Source: Okeania sp. (GTDB taxonomy: Bacteria > Cyanobacteriota > Cyanobacteriia > Cyanobacteriales > Microcoleaceae). Taken from it: DNA of 32,000 nt. The stretch spans positions 21,969 through 53,968 of the forward strand of contig NZ_JAYKGW010000017.1 in the NCBI RefSeq assembly GCF_035285525.1, written 5' to 3'. A program made the position numbers and the translations under genes. Shown here in pieces: positions 523 through 24,143 of this stretch; the stretch's first letter is position 1, and each line of letters opens with the position of its first letter. The notes under the pieces were generated by a model, which was given only the letters and a program-made list of their open reading frames with translations, ran no database searches and was not told the DNA's origin.

Positions 523-3500
523 TTAATTTACCTTAAACTCTGCCACATTCTTTTCTAACTCCCCAGCAACTTCTAGTAACTTAGCAAAAGACTGCGCCAC
601 AGTCATAGACTGTTCAGAAGTTTGATTAGCGATCGCTGCCACCTCCTCCATAGTTTTCGACAGTGCATTAGAAGTATCAGCTTGAGTAGTAGCAGAAACA
701 GTAATCTCCCCTACCAACTCACTAATTTGTCCACTCACATCCAACACATCCGTTAGAGTTTTTCGTGCCCCCTTAACTAACTCAGTACCAATCATAACTC
801 GCTTGCGTCCTACCACCATTGCCTTAATCACCTCAGTGGTGCCAGACTGAATCTCCTCGACAATTTGCTCTATCTCCTGAGTCGCACTAGCCGACTGTTC
901 TGCCAGAGAACGTACTTCACTGGCAACCGTCGCAAAACCTTGGTCGTCTTGCCCCGCTCTAGTTGCCTCCACGGAAGCATTCAAAGCCAAAACATTAGTT
1001 TGATTTGCCAAATCATTAATCAAACTCAACACCCGGGAAATCTTCTTAGAAGTTTCCCCCAAAACCTTCACCTTCCTAGCAGTTGCCTCCACAGTTTTCT
1101 GAATCCCCACAATACCATCCACAGTTTTATTCATCGCTGCATCACTGGTTTGCAGAATCTGATTTGCCTGCTGCACCTTAGCTTCGGCTTGTTGAGCATT
1201 ACCCACCACTGCCTTGACTGAATTAGCCATCACCTGAATTTTTTCCAGAGCATTAATAATCGCCTCCGCTTGCCGTGTCGCTCCCACAGACAACTTCTTA
1301 ATCTCTGCCTCATTACCCTCAGTCGTCGAACTCACCACATTTGTTGCCGACTGCACCTGCAACACCAACTGCTGTAAATTTTCAATCGTGGCATTAAAAA
1401 AGTCAGCCACAGTTCCCATCACACCACTGGTTACAGCAGCACGCACCGTCAAATCACCATCAAAAGAACTTTCGATTTCTGACAAAAACTTTTCAATTTG
1501 ACTTTCTAACAACTCCTTTTGCTGCTGTTGCTCAATAGACACACTCTCAGCTTTTCGACGAGCCTGTTCAACCTGTTGCAACAAAACCGCCTGGTCCAAA
1601 GCATACCCAATCTGCAAAGCCACCTGTTTAAACACCTCAACATCTGACTCCAACCAGTTGCGAGTTTCCGAACATTGATGCACACCCAACAAACCATAGA
1701 GAATCTGATTCACCAAAATTGGAGCCACCATATTCGCCTTCACCTGCCATTTTTTTAACTGTTCCTCATGGCAAGCAGTCAAACCTGCCTTACTAATATC
1801 AGCATTCACTAACACCCGACCTTGACGATATGGTTCCACATAATCTGCTGGAAAACAAGTCACATCGCTTTCCACCTCCGAAATATTGATATACCCTTGT
1901 TTCACTGCCTCACTAATAATCTTACCATCCCAGTCTTCATCAAAGCGATAAACTACCACCCTGTCAGCCTCTATTAACTTTAGCGCCTCCTCTACACCTG
2001 TACGGAAAATGCGTTCAATATCAAGAGACTCTCGAATCCTTAAACTAATTTGATTCAACTTTTTCGACTGCTCAACACTTGTTTTTTGTTGTTGGAGGAG
2101 GTTTTCCTGTTCCACCGCAAAACCAACTTGAGTAGCCAACTGCCTAACGAAATCCACCTCCGTATCTTTCCAGTTCCGGGGAGCAGAACATTGATTAATC
2201 ACAAAGAAACCATACAGCTTTTTGTCAACAAAAATTGGAGCCGTCAAAGTTGCCTTAATTGCCAAAGGTTCAGCATCCTTTAAATAACACTCAGTAGTCT
2301 TAGCATCGTCAATTATAGTTTGAGAAGGGTCATGCAAATTTCTCAGAACCTTAACTCGTCCTCGCAAATAAGCCTTAATATGATGTTCCTTAAAACACTT
2401 GCTATCTAACTTACTACCCAGAGCAGCATACCACATACTATCCACCGACTCAGCCACAACCACACCATTGTAGTCATCATCTAACTTATAAACCATCACT
2501 CGGTCTGCTGCTAACACTTGGCGAGTCTCCACCACCACCGTATTAAAAATATCCTGTTCATTCAAAGACTCCCGAATCATCGAACTAATTTCATTCAACC
2601 GTCGCGCTTGTTCCGTCGCCACCCTTTGTTGTTCCAAAAGTCCTTGCTGTTCCAAAGCAGTGCTGACTTGACTAGCCAACTGTTTGATAAAATTAACTTC
2701 TGACTCTTGCCAACTTCGAGGTTTAGAACATTGGTGAATAATCAACCAACCATACAACCTTGCCTCCACTAGAATTGGTGCAGAAATGTTCGCCTTAACA
2801 TCAAAAGGTTTTAATAGCTGAAGCATACATTCAGATACCCCAGGACTATTAATATTTTTAATTGTACTAACTTGTCCGCGCAAATAAGATTTAAAATTTT
2901 TCGCAAAGCAAGGATCAGCTATTTTCTGCCCCAGAGTGCTTTTCCAACCCTGACCGAGTGATTCTGCTATCACTGTACCAACCATATTCTCATCAAAACA
3001 ATAAATTATAGCACGGTCAGCTCCCAGAGCATTACGAGCCTCCTCAATCACAAGGTCAAAAACTTCTTCAATATTCGTGGTACTACGAAGATTCATAGAA
3101 ATTTCATTTAATAAGCGAGCCTGTTTAGTCGCCGCTTGTTGCTTTTCCAATAGATACGCTTGGTCTAGAGCATATCCCACCTGAACACCAACCTTCCGCA
3201 TCAAATCCATTTCTAACTCCGTCCAACCTCTTGGACCGGAGCATTGGTGAGCAATCAACAAACCCTGCAACTCCTTCTCCACTACAATAGGAGCAACCAA
3301 ATTAGCCTGCACCTCAAAAGGTTCGAGTTGACCAAGATAACACTGAGTCAATCCCGCTTCATAAATATTTTCTGTAGCTTGAACTCGTCCTTGTTGATAA
3401 GATTGTATATAGCGATCAGCAAAACAAGGGTCAGCAATTTTTGCCCCCAACGCTTTCGGCCAGCCACTACCCACCGACTCAGCAATAACAGTACCCTTCC

Positions 3501-4446
3501 ACTCTTCATCAAACTCATACACCACCACCCGGTCTGAGTTTAAAGCACGGCGAGTTTCTTCAACAGCAGTCACCAAAATATCCTTCAGATTGAGAGACTT
3601 ACGAATTTCAGCATTGATGTAATTTAAGTTTTGAGCTTGTTGAGTAGCTGCCCGTTGTTTTTCTAATAATAATGCTTGGTCTACAGCATAACCAAGTTGA
3701 ATCGCCAATTGTTGGAAAAACTCAATTTCTGACTCCACCCATTGTCGAGGTTGAGCGCAATGATGCGCTATCAATAACCCCAGTAACTTTCCATTAGCAA
3801 GTATAGGCGCAACCAAATTTGCTCTCACAGCAAAAGGTTCCAATTGCTTAATGTGACATTCAGTTAATCCAGCCTTATAGATATCAGGAGTCGCTCCTAC
3901 CCGCCCTTTCTTGTAAAATTCTACATAGCGATCAGCAAAACAAGGATCCGCTATTTCCGCTCCCATAGCCTTTGGCCATTGTACATCTACTGATTCTGCA
4001 ATAACTGTACCTTGCCAATTTTTATCAAATTCATATACTATTACTCTATCTGTTTGCAAAGCAGCCCTAGCATCTTGCACCACAGTTTTAAAGATGTCTT
4101 CAATATTGAGAGACTCCCGAATATTTGACGTGATTTCGTTTAATAATTCAGCCCTTTCTGCTGCCGCTCCTTCTTTTTCTATTAATAATTGAAGTTGATT
4201 AATTCTGATATCTATATTAGAGCGTAATGTGGCTAAATCTTCTGCCAAAGCATTAGTTTTTGCCTTTAACCCTTGTGGTTTTTGATTAGTATTTGGCTGC
4301 CAAACTTCTACTGGCACAATTGTTACCTCCTCATCATCTACTTGATTCTTTGTAGTTTCTCGATTAGATTTTTGAGAGTAATCTTGAGCTTGATTTTGTA
4401 CTCTATTATCTGGCTGGTTGTTTTTTCTAAAACGTGCTTGTGTCAT
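523..4446 (-). CDS. pixJ: Phototaxis-type methyl-accepting chemotaxis protein with five tandem cyanobacteriochrome-like GAF domains (PixJ/PtxD-like)
   Basis: 1307-aa ORF. The C-terminal ~300 aa carry the MCP signalling hairpin (LINDLANQTNVLALNASVEATRAGQDDQGFATVASEVRSLAEQS). Five ~170-aa GAF repeats each have a (D)xCF-type Cys and a downstream AGLTxC(H/Y/M) Cys. It lies in a pixG-H-I-J-L-like gene order. Confidence 0.9.
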   Translation of the reverse strand: MTQARFRKNNQPDNRVQNQAQDYSQKSNRETTKNQVDDEEVTIVPVEVWQPNTNQKPQGLKAKTNALAEDLATLRSNIDIRINQLQLLIEKEGAAAERAELLNEITSNIRESLNIEDIFKTVVQDARAALQTDRVIVYEFDKNWQGTVIAESVDVQWPKAMGAEIADPCFADRYVEFYKKGRVGATPDIYKAGLTECHIKQLEPFAVRANLVAPILANGKLLGLLIAHHCAQPRQWVESEIEFFQQLAIQLGYAVDQALLLEKQRAATQQAQNLNYINAEIRKSLNLKDILVTAVEETRRALNSDRVVVYEFDEEWKGTVIAESVGSGWPKALGAKIADPCFADRYIQSYQQGRVQATENIYEAGLTQCYLGQLEPFEVQANLVAPIVVEKELQGLLIAHQCSGPRGWTELEMDLMRKVGVQVGYALDQAYLLEKQQAATKQARLLNEISMNLRSTTNIEEVFDLVIEEARNALGADRAIIYCFDENMVGTVIAESLGQGWKSTLGQKIADPCFAKNFKSYLRGQVSTIKNINSPGVSECMLQLLKPFDVKANISAPILVEARLYGWLIIHQCSKPRSWQESEVNFIKQLASQVSTALEQQGLLEQQRVATEQARRLNEISSMIRESLNEQDIFNTVVVETRQVLAADRVMVYKLDDDYNGVVVAESVDSMWYAALGSKLDSKCFKEHHIKAYLRGRVKVLRNLHDPSQTIIDDAKTTECYLKDAEPLAIKATLTAPIFVDKKLYGFFVINQCSAPRNWKDTEVDFVRQLATQVGFAVEQENLLQQQKTSVEQSKKLNQISLRIRESLDIERIFRTGVEEALKLIEADRVVVYRFDEDWDGKIISEAVKQGYINISEVESDVTCFPADYVEPYRQGRVLVNADISKAGLTACHEEQLKKWQVKANMVAPILVNQILYGLLGVHQCSETRNWLESDVEVFKQVALQIGYALDQAVLLQQVEQARRKAESVSIEQQQQKELLESQIEKFLSEIESSFDGDLTVRAAVTSGVMGTVADFFNATIENLQQLVLQVQSATNVVSSTTEGNEAEIKKLSVGATRQAEAIINALEKIQVMANSVKAVVGNAQQAEAKVQQANQILQTSDAAMNKTVDGIVGIQKTVEATARKVKVLGETSKKISRVLSLINDLANQTNVLALNASVEATRAGQDDQGFATVASEVRSLAEQSASATQEIEQIVEEIQSGTTEVIKAMVVGRKRVMIGTELVKGARKTLTDVLDVSGQISELVGEITVSATTQADTSNALSKTMEEVAAIANQTSEQSMTVAQSFAKLLEVAGELEKNVAEFKVN

Positions 4447-4507
4447 TTATTTTAGGAAATAGGAAATAGTGCGACCATCTTGCTCGCATTGGAACAGGGA
4501 CTAAGCT

Positions 4508-4551
4508 AGAAACCCGGTTTCTTGGAGAAACCGGGTTTCTTTTTTTTTTTT
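4508..4551 (+). terminator. Very strong intrinsic-terminator-like hairpin facing the plus strand, antisense to the operon
   Basis: AGAAACCCGGTTTCT (4508-4522) pairs perfectly with AGAAACCGGGTTTCT (4526-4540). That gives a 15-bp stem with a 3-nt loop, followed by T11 (4541-4551). On the minus strand no U-tract follows the hairpin. Confidence 0.6.
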
Positions 4552-4586
4552 GGAAACCGGGTTTCTTTGAGTAGGGAGTAGAAAGT

Positions 4587-4668
4587 AGGAAATAGTGCGA
4601 CCATCTTGCTCGCGTTTGATAGAGTAAGAAATAGTGTGACCATCTTGCTCGCGTTTGATAGAGTAGGT
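4587..4668. repeat. Two tandem 41-bp repeats, with a third dispersed copy of the core at 4464-4487
   Basis: GGAAATAGTG(C/T)GACCATCTTGCTCGCGTTTGATAGAGTA occurs at 4587 and 4628. The core AAATAGTGCGACCATCTTGCTCGC also occurs at 4464. The adjacent hairpin GGGTTTGG-TCT-CCAAACCC lies at 4672-4690. Confidence 0.85.
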
Positions 4669-4738
4669 TAGGGGTTTGGTCTCCAAACCCAAGCATTAAG
4701 GGATGATATCTAGTTATTAGCATTCAGTCTAGTTTAAT

Positions 4739-5236
4739 CTAGTTTTTTTCTATGTATTCAATAATTGCTTCAACATCTAAAATCATCTTTCTTTCTCCTG
4801 TTGAATTAGTGCAAGTTCCTAGAATAAATTGTTCTACAAGTGAATCTTTTTTCTCTTTTTTTATAGCACTAATATTTTGACTTTCAATGTCAATCAAGTT
4901 ACCTACTTTTTGCACTAATATACCCAGATAACTATCTCGAAATTTTACTTTGATTACCCGAAATTTTTGTTGATAGTATCCAGTAGAGAGCAAAGGTTCA
5001 AAACCCATCAAATAAGCTAGATCAATTAACCAGAGAATTTCGCCTTGCCACTGAAACACTCCTACAACTACAGTTGGCATACCCGGTATTTGTAAAATTG
5101 TTCTCTGGTCTAGGGTAATCACTTCATTCAGCTCACGGGTAGATAATATAACCTCTAATGTTTTAGTAACTTCTAAAGATATAAATTGTTTACTACTACT
5201 GATTGTTTGGGAACCGTATGATGCTTGTTTTGACAT
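4739..5236 (-). CDS. pixI: CheW-like coupling protein
   Basis: 165-aa ORF with the CheW signature region (IPGMPTVVVGVFQWQGEILWLIDLAYLMG ... ILDVEAI). It lies between the CheY-like and MCP genes. Confidence 0.85.
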   Translation of the reverse strand: MSKQASYGSQTISSSKQFISLEVTKTLEVILSTRELNEVITLDQRTILQIPGMPTVVVGVFQWQGEILWLIDLAYLMGFEPLLSTGYYQQKFRVIKVKFRDSYLGILVQKVGNLIDIESQNISAIKKEKKDSLVEQFILGTCTNSTGERKMILDVEAIIEYIEKN

Positions 5237-5524
5237 TGGCTTTTTTCTATTTTTAGGGAGTAGGGAGTAGGGAGTAGAAAGTAGGTAATAGGCAATAGGG
5301 AACAGTTTAGAGTATCTGCTACGGCCAAATTTTCTGACAATATGTCAAATCTTTACCATTTTGAGATAACAATAGCCAAAAAATAGGTACTTTTTTAGGC
5401 ATCAATAAAAAGGCACTTACCTTGATCTGTTAATGCTTTTATATTTAATGAGCATAGCAATATTTATTGGTTGGCTTGGGCTTGGTTTTATTTAATTCTT
5501 TAGTGATTAAATACCTACCGTTTT

Positions 5525-5893
5525 TCAAGCGACCAATTTTTCTAAAGTTGCCACAAGTTTCTCTTGATCAACTGGTTTAGTAACATAAGCAGATGCTCCC
5601 TGCTTCATCCCCCATTTTTGATCTATTTTCTCTGATTTACTAGAACAAATAATAATCGGGATATTCGCTGTATTTTCTTGATTTTTTAGTTCTCTACATA
5701 AACTATAACCGCTTTGACCAGGAAGCACAATATCCATTAAAATCGCATCAAAATTTTTTTGCCCCAATATAGCTTTAGCTGCTTCTGCTGTAGTTACGCT
5801 CAAGACATCATATCCTGATTTTTTTAAATAGTCAGTCAAGATAGTAGCTTCTGTTGGACTATCTTCTACAATTAAAACATTTTTTTTTACCAT
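5525..5893 (-). CDS. pixH: Single-domain CheY-like response regulator
   Basis: Receiver domain: LIVEDS, phospho-acceptor context ILMDIVLPGQSG, and conserved K in YVTKP. The track ORF begins at a TTG (5914). I prefer the ATG at 5891-5893 (MVKKNVLIVEDS), which has an AAGGAA Shine-Dalgarno-like element about 10 nt upstream. Confidence 0.85.
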   Translation of the reverse strand: MVKKNVLIVEDSPTEATILTDYLKKSGYDVLSVTTAEAAKAILGQKNFDAILMDIVLPGQSGYSLCRELKNQENTANIPIIICSSKSEKIDQKWGMKQGASAYVTKPVDQEKLVATLEKLVA

Positions 5894-6065
5894 TGCTGAT
5901 CTTTTCCTTATCAATACTAATTTAATAATAAATTCTTGTTAATTAATATTATTAATATTTAGACAAAAATTTATTTTTCTTCATAATACAATATTAATTA
6001 CTAAGTTGCATCTTCCCAATTGTTTTTCCTGCTTCTCTGGTGTAGCTTATAGGAATTTCCATACT

Positions 6066-6265
6066 TAGGGTTTGCGCTTCTTCAGTCTTTTTAAGAAGAT
6101 GGGGTGATAGGGTGATGGGGAGTAAATTTTTGTGCCCAACTATGCGCCCAAAATAATAAATTTTTGAGTATGAATAGCTCAAATAAGCTGATTTTTTTAA
6201 GGTGTAAAAAAGCTAAAACTTTTATCTGTCAAGGTTTTTATCTTTAATTAGTAGGAAATTAGGCT
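6066..6265 (+). mobile_element. MITE-like element, family D (TAGGGTTTGC.. terminal repeat)
   Basis: It starts TAGGGTTTGCGC. Its interior (AAGATGGGGTGATAGGGTGATGGGGAGTAAATTTTTGTGCCCAACTATGCGCCCAAAAT) matches the reverse complement of 9260-9371. It explains the spurious ORF at 5994-6182. Confidence 0.6.
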
Positions 6266-6477
6266 TTAGGGAAAAATAGTACAGTCTCCAACGACAAGTA
6301 GCAAAGAGTTATGACATTAGTCGAGAGGCTTTGCTAGAGCGATTATCCTTGCTAACAACTGCTTTTCATCCCCTGAAAAGGGAAGGCTTGAGACCTTATT
6401 TTTTGGTCAAACGATATAGTCGAGTTTATTAACATATTTTAATTATATAAGCAATAGTAATATTGACTGATTTTTGA

Positions 6478-7764
6478 TTAGGAAAATTTGGGAGCGACAG
6501 ACAAATATTTTTCGATCATTTTTAAAATTTCTTCTGGTTCACCAGGTTTGTGCAAAAATCCAACAGCTCCCATTAATTTAGCCCGACTCCTATCTATTAA
6601 ATTATTCCGACTGGTAAAGATGATTATTGGTATTTTGGCAAATACTGGTGCATTTCGTAAAAATTGATAAACAGTATAACCATTAGCATCAGGCATTTCT
6701 AAGTCAAGAAAAATTAAATCTGGTTTTTCTTCAGCAATTTTTACCAGTCCTTTGACTGGATCTTGTACATCCATCAACTCATATCCAGTAGGTTCAATAA
6801 TTTTTCTTAATCTTTCAGCAACTACTATACTGTCATCAATACAAGCAATTAATGGCTTTTTTTTAGTAGTAATCTGGTCTTTATTTTCCTCATTTTCTTG
6901 AGCATCAGTTAAATGTAATTGAAAATTCGGTTTTGGTAAATCGGGAATTTCTTGTAGTTCTACAAAGTTTTTTTTGATTAAGGGAAGTAAAGCTTTACTG
7001 ACAGTTAATACTGTTTTTTTTAGTTTACAGGAAATATCCCACAAAGTTAAATCCCCCTTTAAGTATTGAATTTGATTAGATAAAACTTTTGAATCAACAG
7101 ATTTTTTCAATATAGGAACAAGATTGGGGTTAAAATTTTCTAAACCTGCTCTTTTCGAGAAATATTGCATTTGAGCAACTTTTGTTAAAATTTTTTCTAT
7201 TTCCCAATAAGACAGAGATAAACCAAGGGATAATTCTGAGCGACTATCATCATTTTTTTTCCATTGATATGTTAAATCTAGACAATGACTCATGGAAAAG
7301 AATATTTCTAAGGTGACAGTGCTAATCACTGCTTTAGCTTGAGAAACAGTGATTTGATCTTTCCTAATTCCATCATATAGAAGTAAATATTCCCAAGGTT
7401 TGTCTGAATCTGATGGTATTGTTGAAGTTGCACGATTCCAATGAGGACAGTAACATTTTACACATCGTTCCCAACGTCTGACTCTATGGATATCGCTAGT
7501 GGCATAGAGCAGTCTACCATAAAATAGGATGAGTCTTTCTTTTCTAGTAGGACTTTTTAACACTAGAGTCCCTATTGCCTTATCTTGAGCAAGTATATTT
7601 AGTTTTTGTGCTAATTGAATTAATTGTTTGTTGCCAGACATGAATTTTAAATTCTTAACACTATCATGAGAAGAATCTTCGGGCTTTGTATCTGTCATAG
7701 TATTGTTATGAAAAGAATCTTCAGGCTTGGTATTTTTCATAACATTCTTGGTGGCCATATACAT
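6478..7764 (-). CDS. pixG: PatA-type response regulator (N-terminal PATAN-like domain plus C-terminal receiver)
   Basis: 428-aa ORF. The C-terminal receiver reads PLIACIDDS ... DLIFLDLEMPDANGY ... FLHKP. The long N-terminal domain is typical of PatA/PixG. It is the first gene of the pix-like operon. The N-terminus carries the duplication TKPEDSFHN / TKPEDSSHD. Confidence 0.8.
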   Translation of the reverse strand: MYMATKNVMKNTKPEDSFHNNTMTDTKPEDSSHDSVKNLKFMSGNKQLIQLAQKLNILAQDKAIGTLVLKSPTRKERLILFYGRLLYATSDIHRVRRWERCVKCYCPHWNRATSTIPSDSDKPWEYLLLYDGIRKDQITVSQAKAVISTVTLEIFFSMSHCLDLTYQWKKNDDSRSELSLGLSLSYWEIEKILTKVAQMQYFSKRAGLENFNPNLVPILKKSVDSKVLSNQIQYLKGDLTLWDISCKLKKTVLTVSKALLPLIKKNFVELQEIPDLPKPNFQLHLTDAQENEENKDQITTKKKPLIACIDDSIVVAERLRKIIEPTGYELMDVQDPVKGLVKIAEEKPDLIFLDLEMPDANGYTVYQFLRNAPVFAKIPIIIFTSRNNLIDRSRAKLMGAVGFLHKPGEPEEILKMIEKYLSVAPKFS

Positions 7765-13453: not shown

Positions 13454-14117
13454 TAGGGTTTGCTGAATAAATACAAGTCTTTACAGATAGAGCTTTTAGG
13501 CTTTTTTTATGTAGGGAAAAATCACCTGGTTTTGAGCTGCTTAATGCACGGTTCCCGAAAAATCAAAAAGTCAGAATTTTAAGCAAGAGTTGGGAAAAAA
13601 ATGATTTTCCTGCTCCCCTATTCCTTAAAAAATACTTTTTCAGCCTAATTAGGGCTTGCTGATTAAATCTCGCTCCCATTGAAATTCCAAAGTTTTAGCC
13701 TTTTTAGACCAAAATACCTGGTTTTTAGCTTTTCATGCACGGTTCCCGAAAAATAGGGTGCGTGGATAAAATAAGAACGGAAAAATTAAGGTAAAATTAT
13801 TGATCCTGCTGTCTCTGTCTTCCCAAACTTCCCAAACTTCCCACCCTTTGTTTTTTTCAGCAAACCCTAATTAGGAATAGATGATTAAATCTAAAATAAT
13901 TGGTATATCAAATATTTTAGCCTTTTTAGAACTTTGAAAAAGTAACAAATTTTCAATCCCAAACCCTCAAAAAGTTAGCATTTTGAGGTAACTATGGCAG
14001 AAAAGTTAATCTTACCCTTATGAATTACCACTTCCTCTATAATTCCCATTCGTCTTGACTCTTCACTACTCCCTACTCCCTGTCAAGGGCAAAAAAACTT
14101 CCATAAGCAAACCCTAA
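13454..14117. mobile_element. Three abutting family-D MITE-like copies filling the gmk-remA spacer
   Basis: Copy 1 (13454-13648) runs TAGGGTTTGCTGAATAAA ... TTTTTCAGCCTAA. Copy 2 (13649-13870) runs TTAGGGCTTGCTGATTAAATC ... TTTTTTTCAGCAAACCCTAA. Copy 3 (13871-14117) runs TTAGGAATAGATGATTAAATC ... CTTCCATAAGCAAACCCTAA. Copies 1 and 2 share the internal block TGCACGGTTCCCGAAAAAT. Confidence 0.65.
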
Positions 14118-20555: not shown

Positions 20556-21998
20556 TTATATATTTTCCAAACTTTGATAAATTTTAGTGGCTATTTCCGT
20601 ACCATGACGAACACAATCTCCTAAAGCTATACCACCAATATAATTGCTACACAAATAAATACCAGGCCAAGATTTTAAACCATGATTAATTTGAGCCAAC
20701 CGAGAATTATGACCTAAATTATACTGAGGAATAGCACGAGACCATATATTTACTGCCAGAACTTTTGGTTGTTCAGCATCCTGCTGCAATAAAGTTTGGC
20801 TAATATCTTGATGAACCTGTGCCACGATCGCTTCACCATCTAACTGAGAAATTTCTGGATCTGTTGCACCCCCAATAAAATTAGTAAACACTTGCCATCC
20901 TGGAGGTGTTCTACCAGAAAATAAAGCAGAAGACCAAATAGTACCAAGAGTCCGAATACCTTGACCTCTAGGAATAAGATTACCAAAACCATCTATTTTT
21001 GCCTTGACAGAAGAGATAGGATATGCTAGGACTACACAAGCAACGGTAGGATAGTAAAATTTATTAAATGTAGAAGCAACTTCGGACAATAAAGGTTTCA
21101 ATAATTCTGCACAAGCATAAGCAGGAGTAGACAGGGCAATAGTACGAGTTTCTACTCGCTCCGAACCATTAGGGGTAGAAAACTCTGCTATATAAGTTTG
21201 TTTTTCTGTCCGACGAATACTGGTAAGATGCCAATTTAGTTTAACTGCTTCTCCTAAATAAGTAGCGATCGCCTTTGGTAATGCTTCTAAACCACCTCGA
21301 AAAGAACCCAACTCCCCAGGTTTAGTCTTAGGAATATTAGGATCGGCAGCTACCTTTGACTGAGATTTTCTTTGAGCAGACAAAATACCACCAGCTAAAA
21401 GTCCACCACCAATATCAGCTATTTGAGCCACCTTAGAAAAAGCAGCAGCAGCACTAAGTTGACTAGGGTCTCCAGCATAAACACCAGAGACAAAAGGTTC
21501 TACCAACCGCTCCATTACCTCAAAACCAAGATGCCTTCGGAAAAATTGGGATACAGTTTCTTCGTTTCCTTGCTGAGACAGATGAGTACCCATAGCAGGT
21601 GACACAAAACCTAAAGCACCAACTAAGGCCCGTAATTTTCCAGCATCGCTCAGTAGTTTAGACTGTAACATAGCCTGTGGACTCATTGGCACTGGTAATA
21701 ATTGTCCATTCCAATAAACATAGCGTGGTAGTTTACGGTCTGCAAAAATTAAATCTTGTTTGAGGCCAACGTCTACAGCTAACTTTAAGAGTTCAGGTGT
21801 AGGAGAAAAACTATTTGGACCTTCTTCCCAAAGAAATTCTCCTTGAGAAACTGTTGTGATATTACCGCCTACTCGATTTTGGCTTTCAGCAACTAAAATT
21901 TTTAAAGGTGAATTGTTACTTAATTTTGTGAGTTTATGGGCTAAACTCAACCCACTAATACCTGCACCCACGACTAAGACATCTAATACTTCTGTCAT
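20556..21998 (-). CDS. hemY: Protoporphyrinogen IX oxidase, HemY (plant PPOX1-like, FAD-dependent)
   Basis: 480-aa ORF. It has the N-terminal dinucleotide fold VLVVGAGISGLSLAHKL. The block VGGNITTVSQGEFLWEEGPNSFSPTPELLKLAVDVGLKQDLIFADRKLPRYVYWNGQLLPVP closely resembles plant and cyanobacterial PPOX. Confidence 0.85.
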   Translation of the reverse strand: MTEVLDVLVVGAGISGLSLAHKLTKLSNNSPLKILVAESQNRVGGNITTVSQGEFLWEEGPNSFSPTPELLKLAVDVGLKQDLIFADRKLPRYVYWNGQLLPVPMSPQAMLQSKLLSDAGKLRALVGALGFVSPAMGTHLSQQGNEETVSQFFRRHLGFEVMERLVEPFVSGVYAGDPSQLSAAAAFSKVAQIADIGGGLLAGGILSAQRKSQSKVAADPNIPKTKPGELGSFRGGLEALPKAIATYLGEAVKLNWHLTSIRRTEKQTYIAEFSTPNGSERVETRTIALSTPAYACAELLKPLLSEVASTFNKFYYPTVACVVLAYPISSVKAKIDGFGNLIPRGQGIRTLGTIWSSALFSGRTPPGWQVFTNFIGGATDPEISQLDGEAIVAQVHQDISQTLLQQDAEQPKVLAVNIWSRAIPQYNLGHNSRLAQINHGLKSWPGIYLCSNYIGGIALGDCVRHGTEIATKIYQSLENI

Positions 21999-22615: not shown

Positions 22616-22840
22616 CTAAGCATGATGCTGGAAAAGGGTTTCTAGATAAACTCTAGCAGCTTGACGATAATAAGGGGATGTCTCTGGTGTACCGCTATCT
22701 CCATTTTGTAATAAAAATAGTGACAAAGCTGCCGAAAATACACGGTCTTGATCCCAGTCGGGATGGGTTTCTAAGTATATTTTAAGGGATTCGTGCAATG
22801 CTTCAGGAATTTCGGCCAGAATACTAACAGTTACATTCAT
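22616..22840 (-). CDS. Small conserved cyanobacterial protein (DUF2811-like, recalled from memory)
   Basis: 74-aa ORF. ILAEIPEALHESLKIYLETHPDWDQDRVFSAALSLFLLQN resembles a widely conserved cyanobacterial hypothetical family. It shows no repeat content. Confidence 0.65.
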   Translation of the reverse strand: MNVTVSILAEIPEALHESLKIYLETHPDWDQDRVFSAALSLFLLQNGDSGTPETSPYYRQAARVYLETLFQHHA

Positions 22841-23311
22841 CTTTTAAATTAGTTTCTTTAATAAATAATATTTTTTCTTTTTTATAGTCCCTAGTTATGG
22901 CCATTAACCGATAACTTGGAACTACCAATGTCGCACCATTGTGCATTAAGAAGGGGTGGGTTTGTCAATGTTGAGAAATATTACAACCTATTTTCAATTA
23001 ATCAAAGATTTACGAAATCATCAGTGTTTCAGAGCCGGTTTTGTTACATAACTTGATAATCATGGCCTAACTTAAGAAATCTACCTATAACTGAACAAAA
23101 TCCCCAATTCATAAGTTCTTAAGCAACATTAATTGTATAAGTCCATAAGCAAAATTAATTGCAAATTACTATTAGACATCTCCAATCTTATCCATAAATT
23201 ATCAATTCTTTCTTCTTGTTCCCTGTTCTCAGTTAAGTGTTCCCTCTCTCAACTAAGAAATTCCTAAAAGCACGACTACTTATATAAGAAGATTATAATG
23301 TCGTTGAACTC

Positions 23312-23385
23312 TGTGGAAAACCCTGTTTAATTTGTGGAAAATATTAAACTTGTTTGTGGAAATGCTGTGGAATTAATGTGGAAAA
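23312..23385 (+). promoter_or_regulatory. Array of five same-orientation DnaA boxes (cyanobacterial consensus TTTTCCACA, read here as TGTGGAAAA)
   Basis: The boxes are TGTGGAAAA at 23312-23320, 23333-23341 and 23377-23385, TGTGGAAAT at 23355-23363, and TGTGGAATT at 23366-23374. Start-to-start spacings are 21, 22, 11 and 11 bp. Confidence 0.7.
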
Positions 23386-24143
23386 TTACATTAAAAGATA
23401 AGAATTTTGAACTACTTAAAGTTTGTTGATGGAAGTCTTTTTTAAGGAGCAGGGGAGCAGGGGAGTGGGGGAGTGGGGACGTTAGATACAAAATTTTATA
23501 CAGAGTAAAGAATAATGGGAGTTATAAAAAGAATAGGGTCTAAAACCCCGCTTTTTCAGGTGAAATGTTTTTGGAGCGTTGCTCTCATCCCCGTTACAAA
23601 AACAACTTCTGACTTCGTTAAAGAGAAGGTGGTCGTTCATAATGGTAGAATTGATTTTTATGCCATAGTTACCCCAAAATACTAACTTGAACAACCTGAG
23701 TTAACTAAAAATTGGCACTTTTTCTGAAGCGAAAAACCCTAAAACCTTAATTACTATTAAAAATTAAAAATTAAAAATATGTATACAAGCTCAAAAGTAG
23801 GTTTAAAGCTATAGCAATCCTTATTTAGTTTGGGATCAAACAACTATCAATTTGAAGTATAGATTATGGAATCAAACTATTATTTGTTTTATAAAGTAAA
23901 ACATTATAGTTTTTCGAGGTTAGTCGAGGTTAGTAGTTGGAATTTTTTTAGTTAGGAACATCAGTTAAGGTATACCATAGAATAATGAGTAAATAGAACA
24001 ATTTATCCCTAGTTGTTTATTAATATTTTTTTCTTAAGTTCGACAAACATAATTATTTATCAAATTCTTTTTCTTTTAATAATAAATAAAAAGCTGTTCT
24101 TCTAGAACATTACTATAAACTAAAATTGTCGGTAAAAAATTCG

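Follow-up and report, generated by a model that had tools for sequence, protein, structure and literature searches.

We found that the spacer upstream of a small DUF2811 gene in the 32-kb window (the whole stretch of Okeania sp. DNA analysed here) carries five DnaA boxes on one strand, and that the same array recurs upstream of DUF2811 genes across the cyanobacteria. Judged from comparative sequence evidence, the array is probably a non-origin DnaA-box cluster that acts as a cis-regulatory, and possibly titrating, element of the DUF2811 promoter.

A motif scan of the 32-kb window located exact copies of TGTGGAAAA on the plus strand at 23312, 23333 and 23377, together with degenerate copies on the same strand at 23355 (TGTGGAAAT) and 23366 (TGTGGAATT). 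As described in the first-pass annotation, the five boxes (23312-23385) share a single orientation, are phased with start-to-start spacings of 21, 22, 11 and 11 bp, match the cyanobacterial DnaA-box consensus and are distant from dnaA and dnaN. Read on the DUF2811 strand, with offsets counted from the box closest to DUF2811 (box 0), the array and its flank are as follows.

23312..23320, minus strand: DnaA box at offset 0, closest to DUF2811; exact TTTTCCACA, identical in 17 of 18 genera-level representatives
23333..23341, minus strand: DnaA box at offset -21; exact TTTTCCACA, exact in 16 of the 18 representatives
23355..23363, minus strand: DnaA box at offset -43; ATTTCCACA, one mismatch; (A/G/T)(T/G)TTCCACA in relatives
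23366..23374, minus strand: weak DnaA box at offset -54, with a 2 bp gap to each adjoining box; AATTCCACA, two mismatches; nATTCCACA in relatives
23377..23385, minus strand: distal DnaA box at offset -65; exact TTTTCCACA here, TTTTCCCCA in many other genera
23393..23406, minus strand: A+T-rich 14-mer AATTCTTATCTTTT, 7 nt past the distal box in the window

Base composition predicts about 0.4 exact 9-mers per 32 kb, while three were seen, all inside 74 bp; a Poisson calculation puts the probability of at least three exact boxes in some 74-bp stretch of the window near 2e-7, which bears out the earlier claim that the clustering is not compositional. The same annotation had counted only one other 8/9 match in the 32 kb. 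We found 18 further one-mismatch sites, and the window total of 22 is about the chance level (15.0 ± 3.6 expected), so the specificity rests on the exact copies and their clustering. The TATAAT hexamer at 23294-23299 is present, but it lies 12 nt from the first box and not 13, and the triple heptamer tract is likewise confirmed, as (ATTAAAA)3 at 23756-23778. The 45 bp past the fifth box, which had been called very AT-rich, are 80% A+T; however, this flank is unexceptional because 17% of the 45-mers in the same intergenic region are equally rich or richer. The 14-mer is kept from Trichodesmium to Lyngbya, Microcoleus, Limnospira and Chroococcidiopsis.

The array-bearing spacer (22841-24125) contains no ORF with a Pfam match, in agreement with its earlier description as gene-free. 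A histidine kinase gene on the plus strand lies to its right, and two genes lie to its left.

22616..22840, minus strand: DUF2811 gene, 74 aa, PF10929 (Pfam E = 2e-28), the gene accompanied by the array
20556..21998, minus strand: protoporphyrinogen oxidase (PPO) gene of the HemY type, 480 aa, downstream of DUF2811 (TIGR00562, 365 bits against a cut-off of 98)

The DNA is that of a low-GC filamentous cyanobacterium of the Trichodesmium/Okeania/Dapis group, and its best protein matches were a marine MAG (90%) and Dapis (88%). The spacer part 23430-23870 is unconserved except for a dispersed repeat. A 71-bp sequence, probably a small dispersed repeat, was found at 23618-23688 and again, 82% identical, at 13972-14042, with similar pieces at non-syntenic sites of Okeania loci. 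Tandem repeats of an octamer GGGGAGYG and a heptamer, of a kind common in filamentous cyanobacteria, were observed at 23446-23478 and in many other spacers, and long non-coding spacers run across the window. Elsewhere in the window, a minus-strand cluster at 523-7764 looks like a phototaxis-type signalling operon: its products are a multi-GAF methyl-accepting protein of 1307 aa, CheW, a regulator of the CheY type and a 428-aa protein that carries a response-regulator receiver domain at its C terminus.

To follow the array across the phylum, we fetched loci via the oxidase protein and via DUF2811 homologues, which gave 62 DUF2811/PPO loci in all. An equivalent array was found in about 40 loci, from Trichodesmium (including IMS101), Okeania, Dapis, Microcoleus, Tychonema, Lyngbya, Capilliphycus, Limnoraphis, Limnospira, Pseudanabaena-type MAGs and PCC 7367 to Leptolyngbya ohadii, Chroococcidiopsis, Spirulina, a Halothece-like MAG, Gloeothece and Stanieria. 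The offsets 0/-21/-43/-54/-65 are common to the 18 genera-level representatives, in which the information content per position was 1.59 bits for the boxes compared to 0.57 for the spacers; there is therefore selection on the boxes and on their phasing, the two weak boxes included. Each locus carries two to four exact 9-mer copies. Furthermore, across 780 kb of non-redundant loci, 103 of the 122 exact boxes fall in the 40 clusters and 19 are isolated. The protein searches named no DUF2811 homologue from the dnaA-less lineages Cyanobacterium, Geminocystis or UCYN-A among the matches listed. In a metagenome scan for triple boxes, which gave at least 120 loci from many phyla, approximately 17 of the loci listed adjoin dnaA or dnaN and 2 adjoin DUF2811; these numbers do not bear on how frequent such clusters are in cyanobacteria.

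The array travels with DUF2811 and not with its neighbours. It is invariably on the DUF2811 strand, and in most genera 284-317 bp separate its last box from the ATG of DUF2811, while the far-side genes differ by genus (histidine kinase, cryptochrome-related DPRP, NfeD, DUF1400 or a nucleoside transporter). In addition, it is retained where HemJ, Pth or peptidase S9 takes the place of HemY after DUF2811, and no box cluster was found in the four loci in which a HemY oxidase gene lacks an adjacent DUF2811 (L022, L037, L040 and L041). Euhalothece natronophila (L182 4690-5000) is the one exception: the promoter block described below and the A+T-rich 14-mer are kept, and all DnaA boxes are lost. The region upstream of DUF2811 in this natural box-less variant retains AATTCTTATTTT and TTGACA-N19-GACAAT. 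At least one lineage can thus do without the boxes. Leptolyngbya ohadii has two tandem copies of the entire array, about 127 bp apart (L056 5336-5536).

The array is the distal portion of a module upstream of the DUF2811 gene that spans about 280 bp, is rigid and is conserved across the phylum. Distances to the internal landmarks of this module were measured from the end of box 0.

23097..23107, minus strand: conserved block TTGGGGATTTT; its start is 205 nt past box 0 here, against 35-36 nt in other genera
23043..23060, plus strand: direct repeat GTTACATA-AC-TTGATAAT, the reverse complement of the conserved TGTAACAAAA block
22938..22992, minus strand: candidate DUF2811 core promoter; TTGTAATATTTCTCAACA, then TTGACA (22968..22963), a 19-nt spacer and CACAAT (22943..22938)
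23292..23319, minus strand: promoter-like TTTCCA-16-TATAAT with its -35 inside box 0; clade-specific
23117..23285, no strand: insertion of about 169 bp between the array and the other parts of the module, revealed by alignment to Dapis and Trichodesmium

The TGTAACAAAA block starts 94-96 nt past box 0 in most genera, and its counterpart at 23043-23060 presumably resembles the HLR1 motif bound by RpaB. An invariant TTGACAA comes next, with CAnAAT 17-19 nt later. The distance from box 0 to TTGACAA is 188-190 nt in Pseudanabaena-type loci and 173-177 nt in the measured loci of the Oscillatoriales, Leptolyngbya ohadii, Chroococcidiopsis, Spirulina and the Halothece-like type. We infer from this pattern that the TTGACA-N17-19-CAnAAT block is a candidate core promoter of DUF2811. 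The second promoter-like sequence has a narrower distribution: its -10-like (C/G/T)ATAAT is kept in Dapis and Trichodesmium, is weaker in Okeania and is absent in Microcoleus, Lyngbya and Limnospira. The 169-bp insertion, between box 0 and the TTGGGGATTTT block, is confined to this organism and the near-identical metagenome contigs L002 and L004 (93% identity, 125 nt aligned). It carries short tandem repeats.

These features agree with the other option in the first-pass annotation, namely a DnaA-controlled promoter or a titration or regulatory site, which fits the comparative evidence. Several consensus boxes occupy a spacer that is not near the origin genes, and they lie on the same strand as DUF2811, at constant distances from it and from its TTGACA block, the putative promoter. 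Cyanobacterial DnaA proteins bind TTTTCCACA boxes both in vitro and in vivo (PMC4674748; PMC7198777). Two strong boxes sit two helical turns apart, next to three boxes with 2-bp gaps in which the weaker is flanked by the stronger. In E. coli, weak boxes with 2-bp gaps flanked by stronger ones support cooperative ATP-DnaA oligomers, and because the layout here is alike, we propose that an oriented DnaA oligomer tunes the DUF2811 promoter. DnaA would bind the strong proximal boxes (0 and -21) and the distal box (-65), and ATP-DnaA would next occupy the two weaker boxes (-43 and -54, separated by 2 bp) and so build up the oligomer, so that the occupancy of the boxes would report the DnaA level or its nucleotide state. 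The occupancy may then modulate transcription from the invariant candidate promoter TTGACA-N17-19-CAnAAT, beginning about 175 bp past the proximal box; in the Trichodesmium clade, the second promoter, whose -35 would lie inside box 0, may be affected too. Some DnaA would necessarily be titrated by the cluster as well. Some observations count against this mechanism. The array is about 200-280 bp upstream of the predicted start (about 380-455 bp in the window), which is far for a simple activator or repressor, the 169-bp insertion parts it from the promoter block in the window, and Euhalothece keeps the promoter block without boxes.

We found no published description of the array in the literature on the box sequence, on DnaA in cyanobacteria or on DUF2811. 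Its closest known kind is the non-origin DnaA-box cluster of Bacillus subtilis and, more loosely, the datA and DARS loci of E. coli. For the B. subtilis clusters, as for the array, roles both in gene regulation and in DnaA titration are proposed. Examples of them lie upstream of sda, ywlC and yydA (Ishikawa 2007, as cited in PMC7198777). Like them, the array groups several consensus boxes between genes, outside oriC and beside a promoter (here a candidate), with a small regulatory-type gene downstream. Unlike them, it is a rigid five-box array at a fixed distance from the promoter and is found phylum-wide, and its binding by DnaA is predicted only. datA and DARS are also DnaA-box clusters with critical spacing that lie outside oriC and act on the DnaA pool, as is proposed for the array; in contrast to it, they depend on IHF or Fis sites and have no link to the promoter of any one gene.

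The main job of the array could instead be control of DnaA itself, by titration or by a change of its nucleotide state in the manner of datA or DARS, rather than regulation of DUF2811. The rigid multi-box spacing, the 2-bp gaps among three boxes and the conserved A+T-rich 14-mer a few nt past the distal box would suit such a locus, as would the persistence of the array whichever gene comes after DUF2811 and its tandem duplication in Leptolyngbya ohadii. However, the fixed strand and the fixed distance to the DUF2811 promoter block across orders would be needless for a pure titration site, and no accessory-protein site of the datA/DARS kind was identified at the array. We consider this alternative unlikely as the main role, and it is compatible with control of the DUF2811 promoter, as the two are mutually non-exclusive.

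Another explanation is that the repeats are bound not by DnaA but by some different factor, such as a response regulator that recognises 11-bp-phased direct repeats, or that they act in a long 5' leader RNA. In its favour, all repeats lie on the DUF2811 sense strand, and OmpR/PhoB-type regulators typically bind direct repeats spaced 11 or 21-22 bp apart. In contrast, the conserved 9-mer, present two to four times per locus, equals the DnaA-box consensus of cyanobacteria exactly, which argues for DnaA. An RNA element was rejected: Rfam gave no match at gathering or relaxed thresholds, and RNAalifold returned no consensus structure for 17 orthologous leaders. We regard this explanation as improbable.

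The first-pass annotation had also offered the array as a candidate oriC core, and a chromosomal replication origin, either the primary one or one of several in a polyploid filamentous cyanobacterium, appears improbable as well. The array does have clustered DnaA boxes of the clade consensus (three exact and two degenerate), phased on the same strand, and an A+T-rich flank past the distal box. Several cyanobacterial origins are poorly defined (PMC7198777), and those of S. elongatus PCC 7942, Anabaena PCC 7120 and Cyanothece 51142 have clustered intergenic TTTTCCACA boxes as well (PMC4009838, PMC4674748). Unlike those origins, which lie beside dnaN or dnaA, the array is linked in strand and distance to DUF2811 across cyanobacterial orders and has no conserved unwinding element. 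The absence of dnaA and dnaN nearby, which had been noted before, was confirmed among the window ORFs and by tblastn, which found neither gene in the window or in 59 loci (827 kb in total). With three further loci checked by gene tables, all 62 DUF2811/PPO loci lack both genes within about 10 kb. The sensitivity of tblastn was adequate, because the identical E. coli queries found both genes at 23-47% identity in unrelated metagenome loci.

The local sequence around the array also argues against an origin. No conserved DnaA-trio run or A+T-rich unwinding element was found flanking the array in relatives. The origin layouts of E. coli and B. subtilis define the side of the boxes on which an unwinding element is expected; in genera outside the Trichodesmium clade, the flank on this side is not A+T-rich and shows no run of NAN triplets, and the conserved A+T-rich 14-mer sits on the opposite side. 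A basal unwinding system consists of a box, a spacer of at most 16 bp and then at least three NAN triplets (PMC8287927). By this permissive NAN rule only the Trichodesmium-clade copies qualify, with five triplets after a 12-bp spacer, which is a point in favour of an origin; however, none of these triplets fits the strict trio consensus, and the run coincides with the -10-like ATAAT.

The chromosomal position of the array points the same way. DoriC/Ori-Finder places the origin of T. erythraeum IMS101 next to dnaA and dnaN (PMC4009838, Table 1), while the IMS101 copy of the array is at about 3.456 Mb of 7.75 Mb. Complete chromosome records usually begin near the presumed origin (PMC7198777), and in such records the array is scattered, at about 4%, 45%, 65%, 70% and 93%. 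The cumulative GC skew of the window shows no inflection at 23.3 kb, which is weak evidence as it covers 32 kb only. Taken together, the five-box array is probably not a replication origin, although this comparative evidence leaves a small probability of a minor or conditional one. A dispersed repeat (STRR or MITE), which the first-pass annotation had itself named as a possible refutation, and plasmid iterons were both rejected: the block occurs as a single cluster per locus at a syntenic site, and its neighbours are chromosomal housekeeping genes.

DUF2811 proteins from the cyanobacterial orders aligned share 74-93% identity, with 74% for the PCC 7367 homologue. For so small a protein this conservation is unusually high, and 30 residues are invariant in a 23-sequence alignment. 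Two AlphaFold runs gave a pLDDT of only 55-58, and a Foldseek search of the PDB returned nothing significant. A PDB profile search, a relaxed Pfam scan and NCBIfam gave no matches, and these searches detected no relative outside the family; a ribbon-helix-helix protein, guessed from the secondary-structure pattern, is unsupported. A literature search on DUF2811 found no papers, and a paper on the Synechocystis hemJ promoter does not cover it. The HemY-type PPO gene follows DUF2811 here and in many Oscillatoriales, and in Leptolyngbya ohadii (L056 6332-6931) and Chroococcidiopsis (L058 4841-5443) it is a HemJ-family oxidase gene (PF03653), unrelated to the HemY type, that follows. This suggests that DUF2811 is tied to the protoporphyrinogen oxidase step, because two non-homologous enzymes for one step share the same slot.

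Several cyanobacteria keep dnaA although they are able to replicate without it, and the role of DnaA there is an open question (PMC7198777). A transcriptional role has been proposed for DnaA in cyanobacteria that replicate without it, with no target genes named (PMC7198777). Conserved in sequence, spacing and position upstream of DUF2811, the array is a concrete candidate for a non-replication target of DnaA, and it is of interest because it makes the role of DnaA in DnaA-independent cyanobacteria testable. It also follows that box clusters in cyanobacteria should not be read as origins before checking for a neighbouring DUF2811. More speculatively, and with a likelihood that we put as low, the array and DUF2811 may form a phylum-wide DnaA-sensing switch in which the DnaA level or nucleotide state sets the expression of a small protein of the oxidase step. 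If true, such a switch would link the status of the replication initiator to the synthesis of chlorophyll and heme, and it would account for the retention of dnaA in cyanobacteria able to replicate without it.
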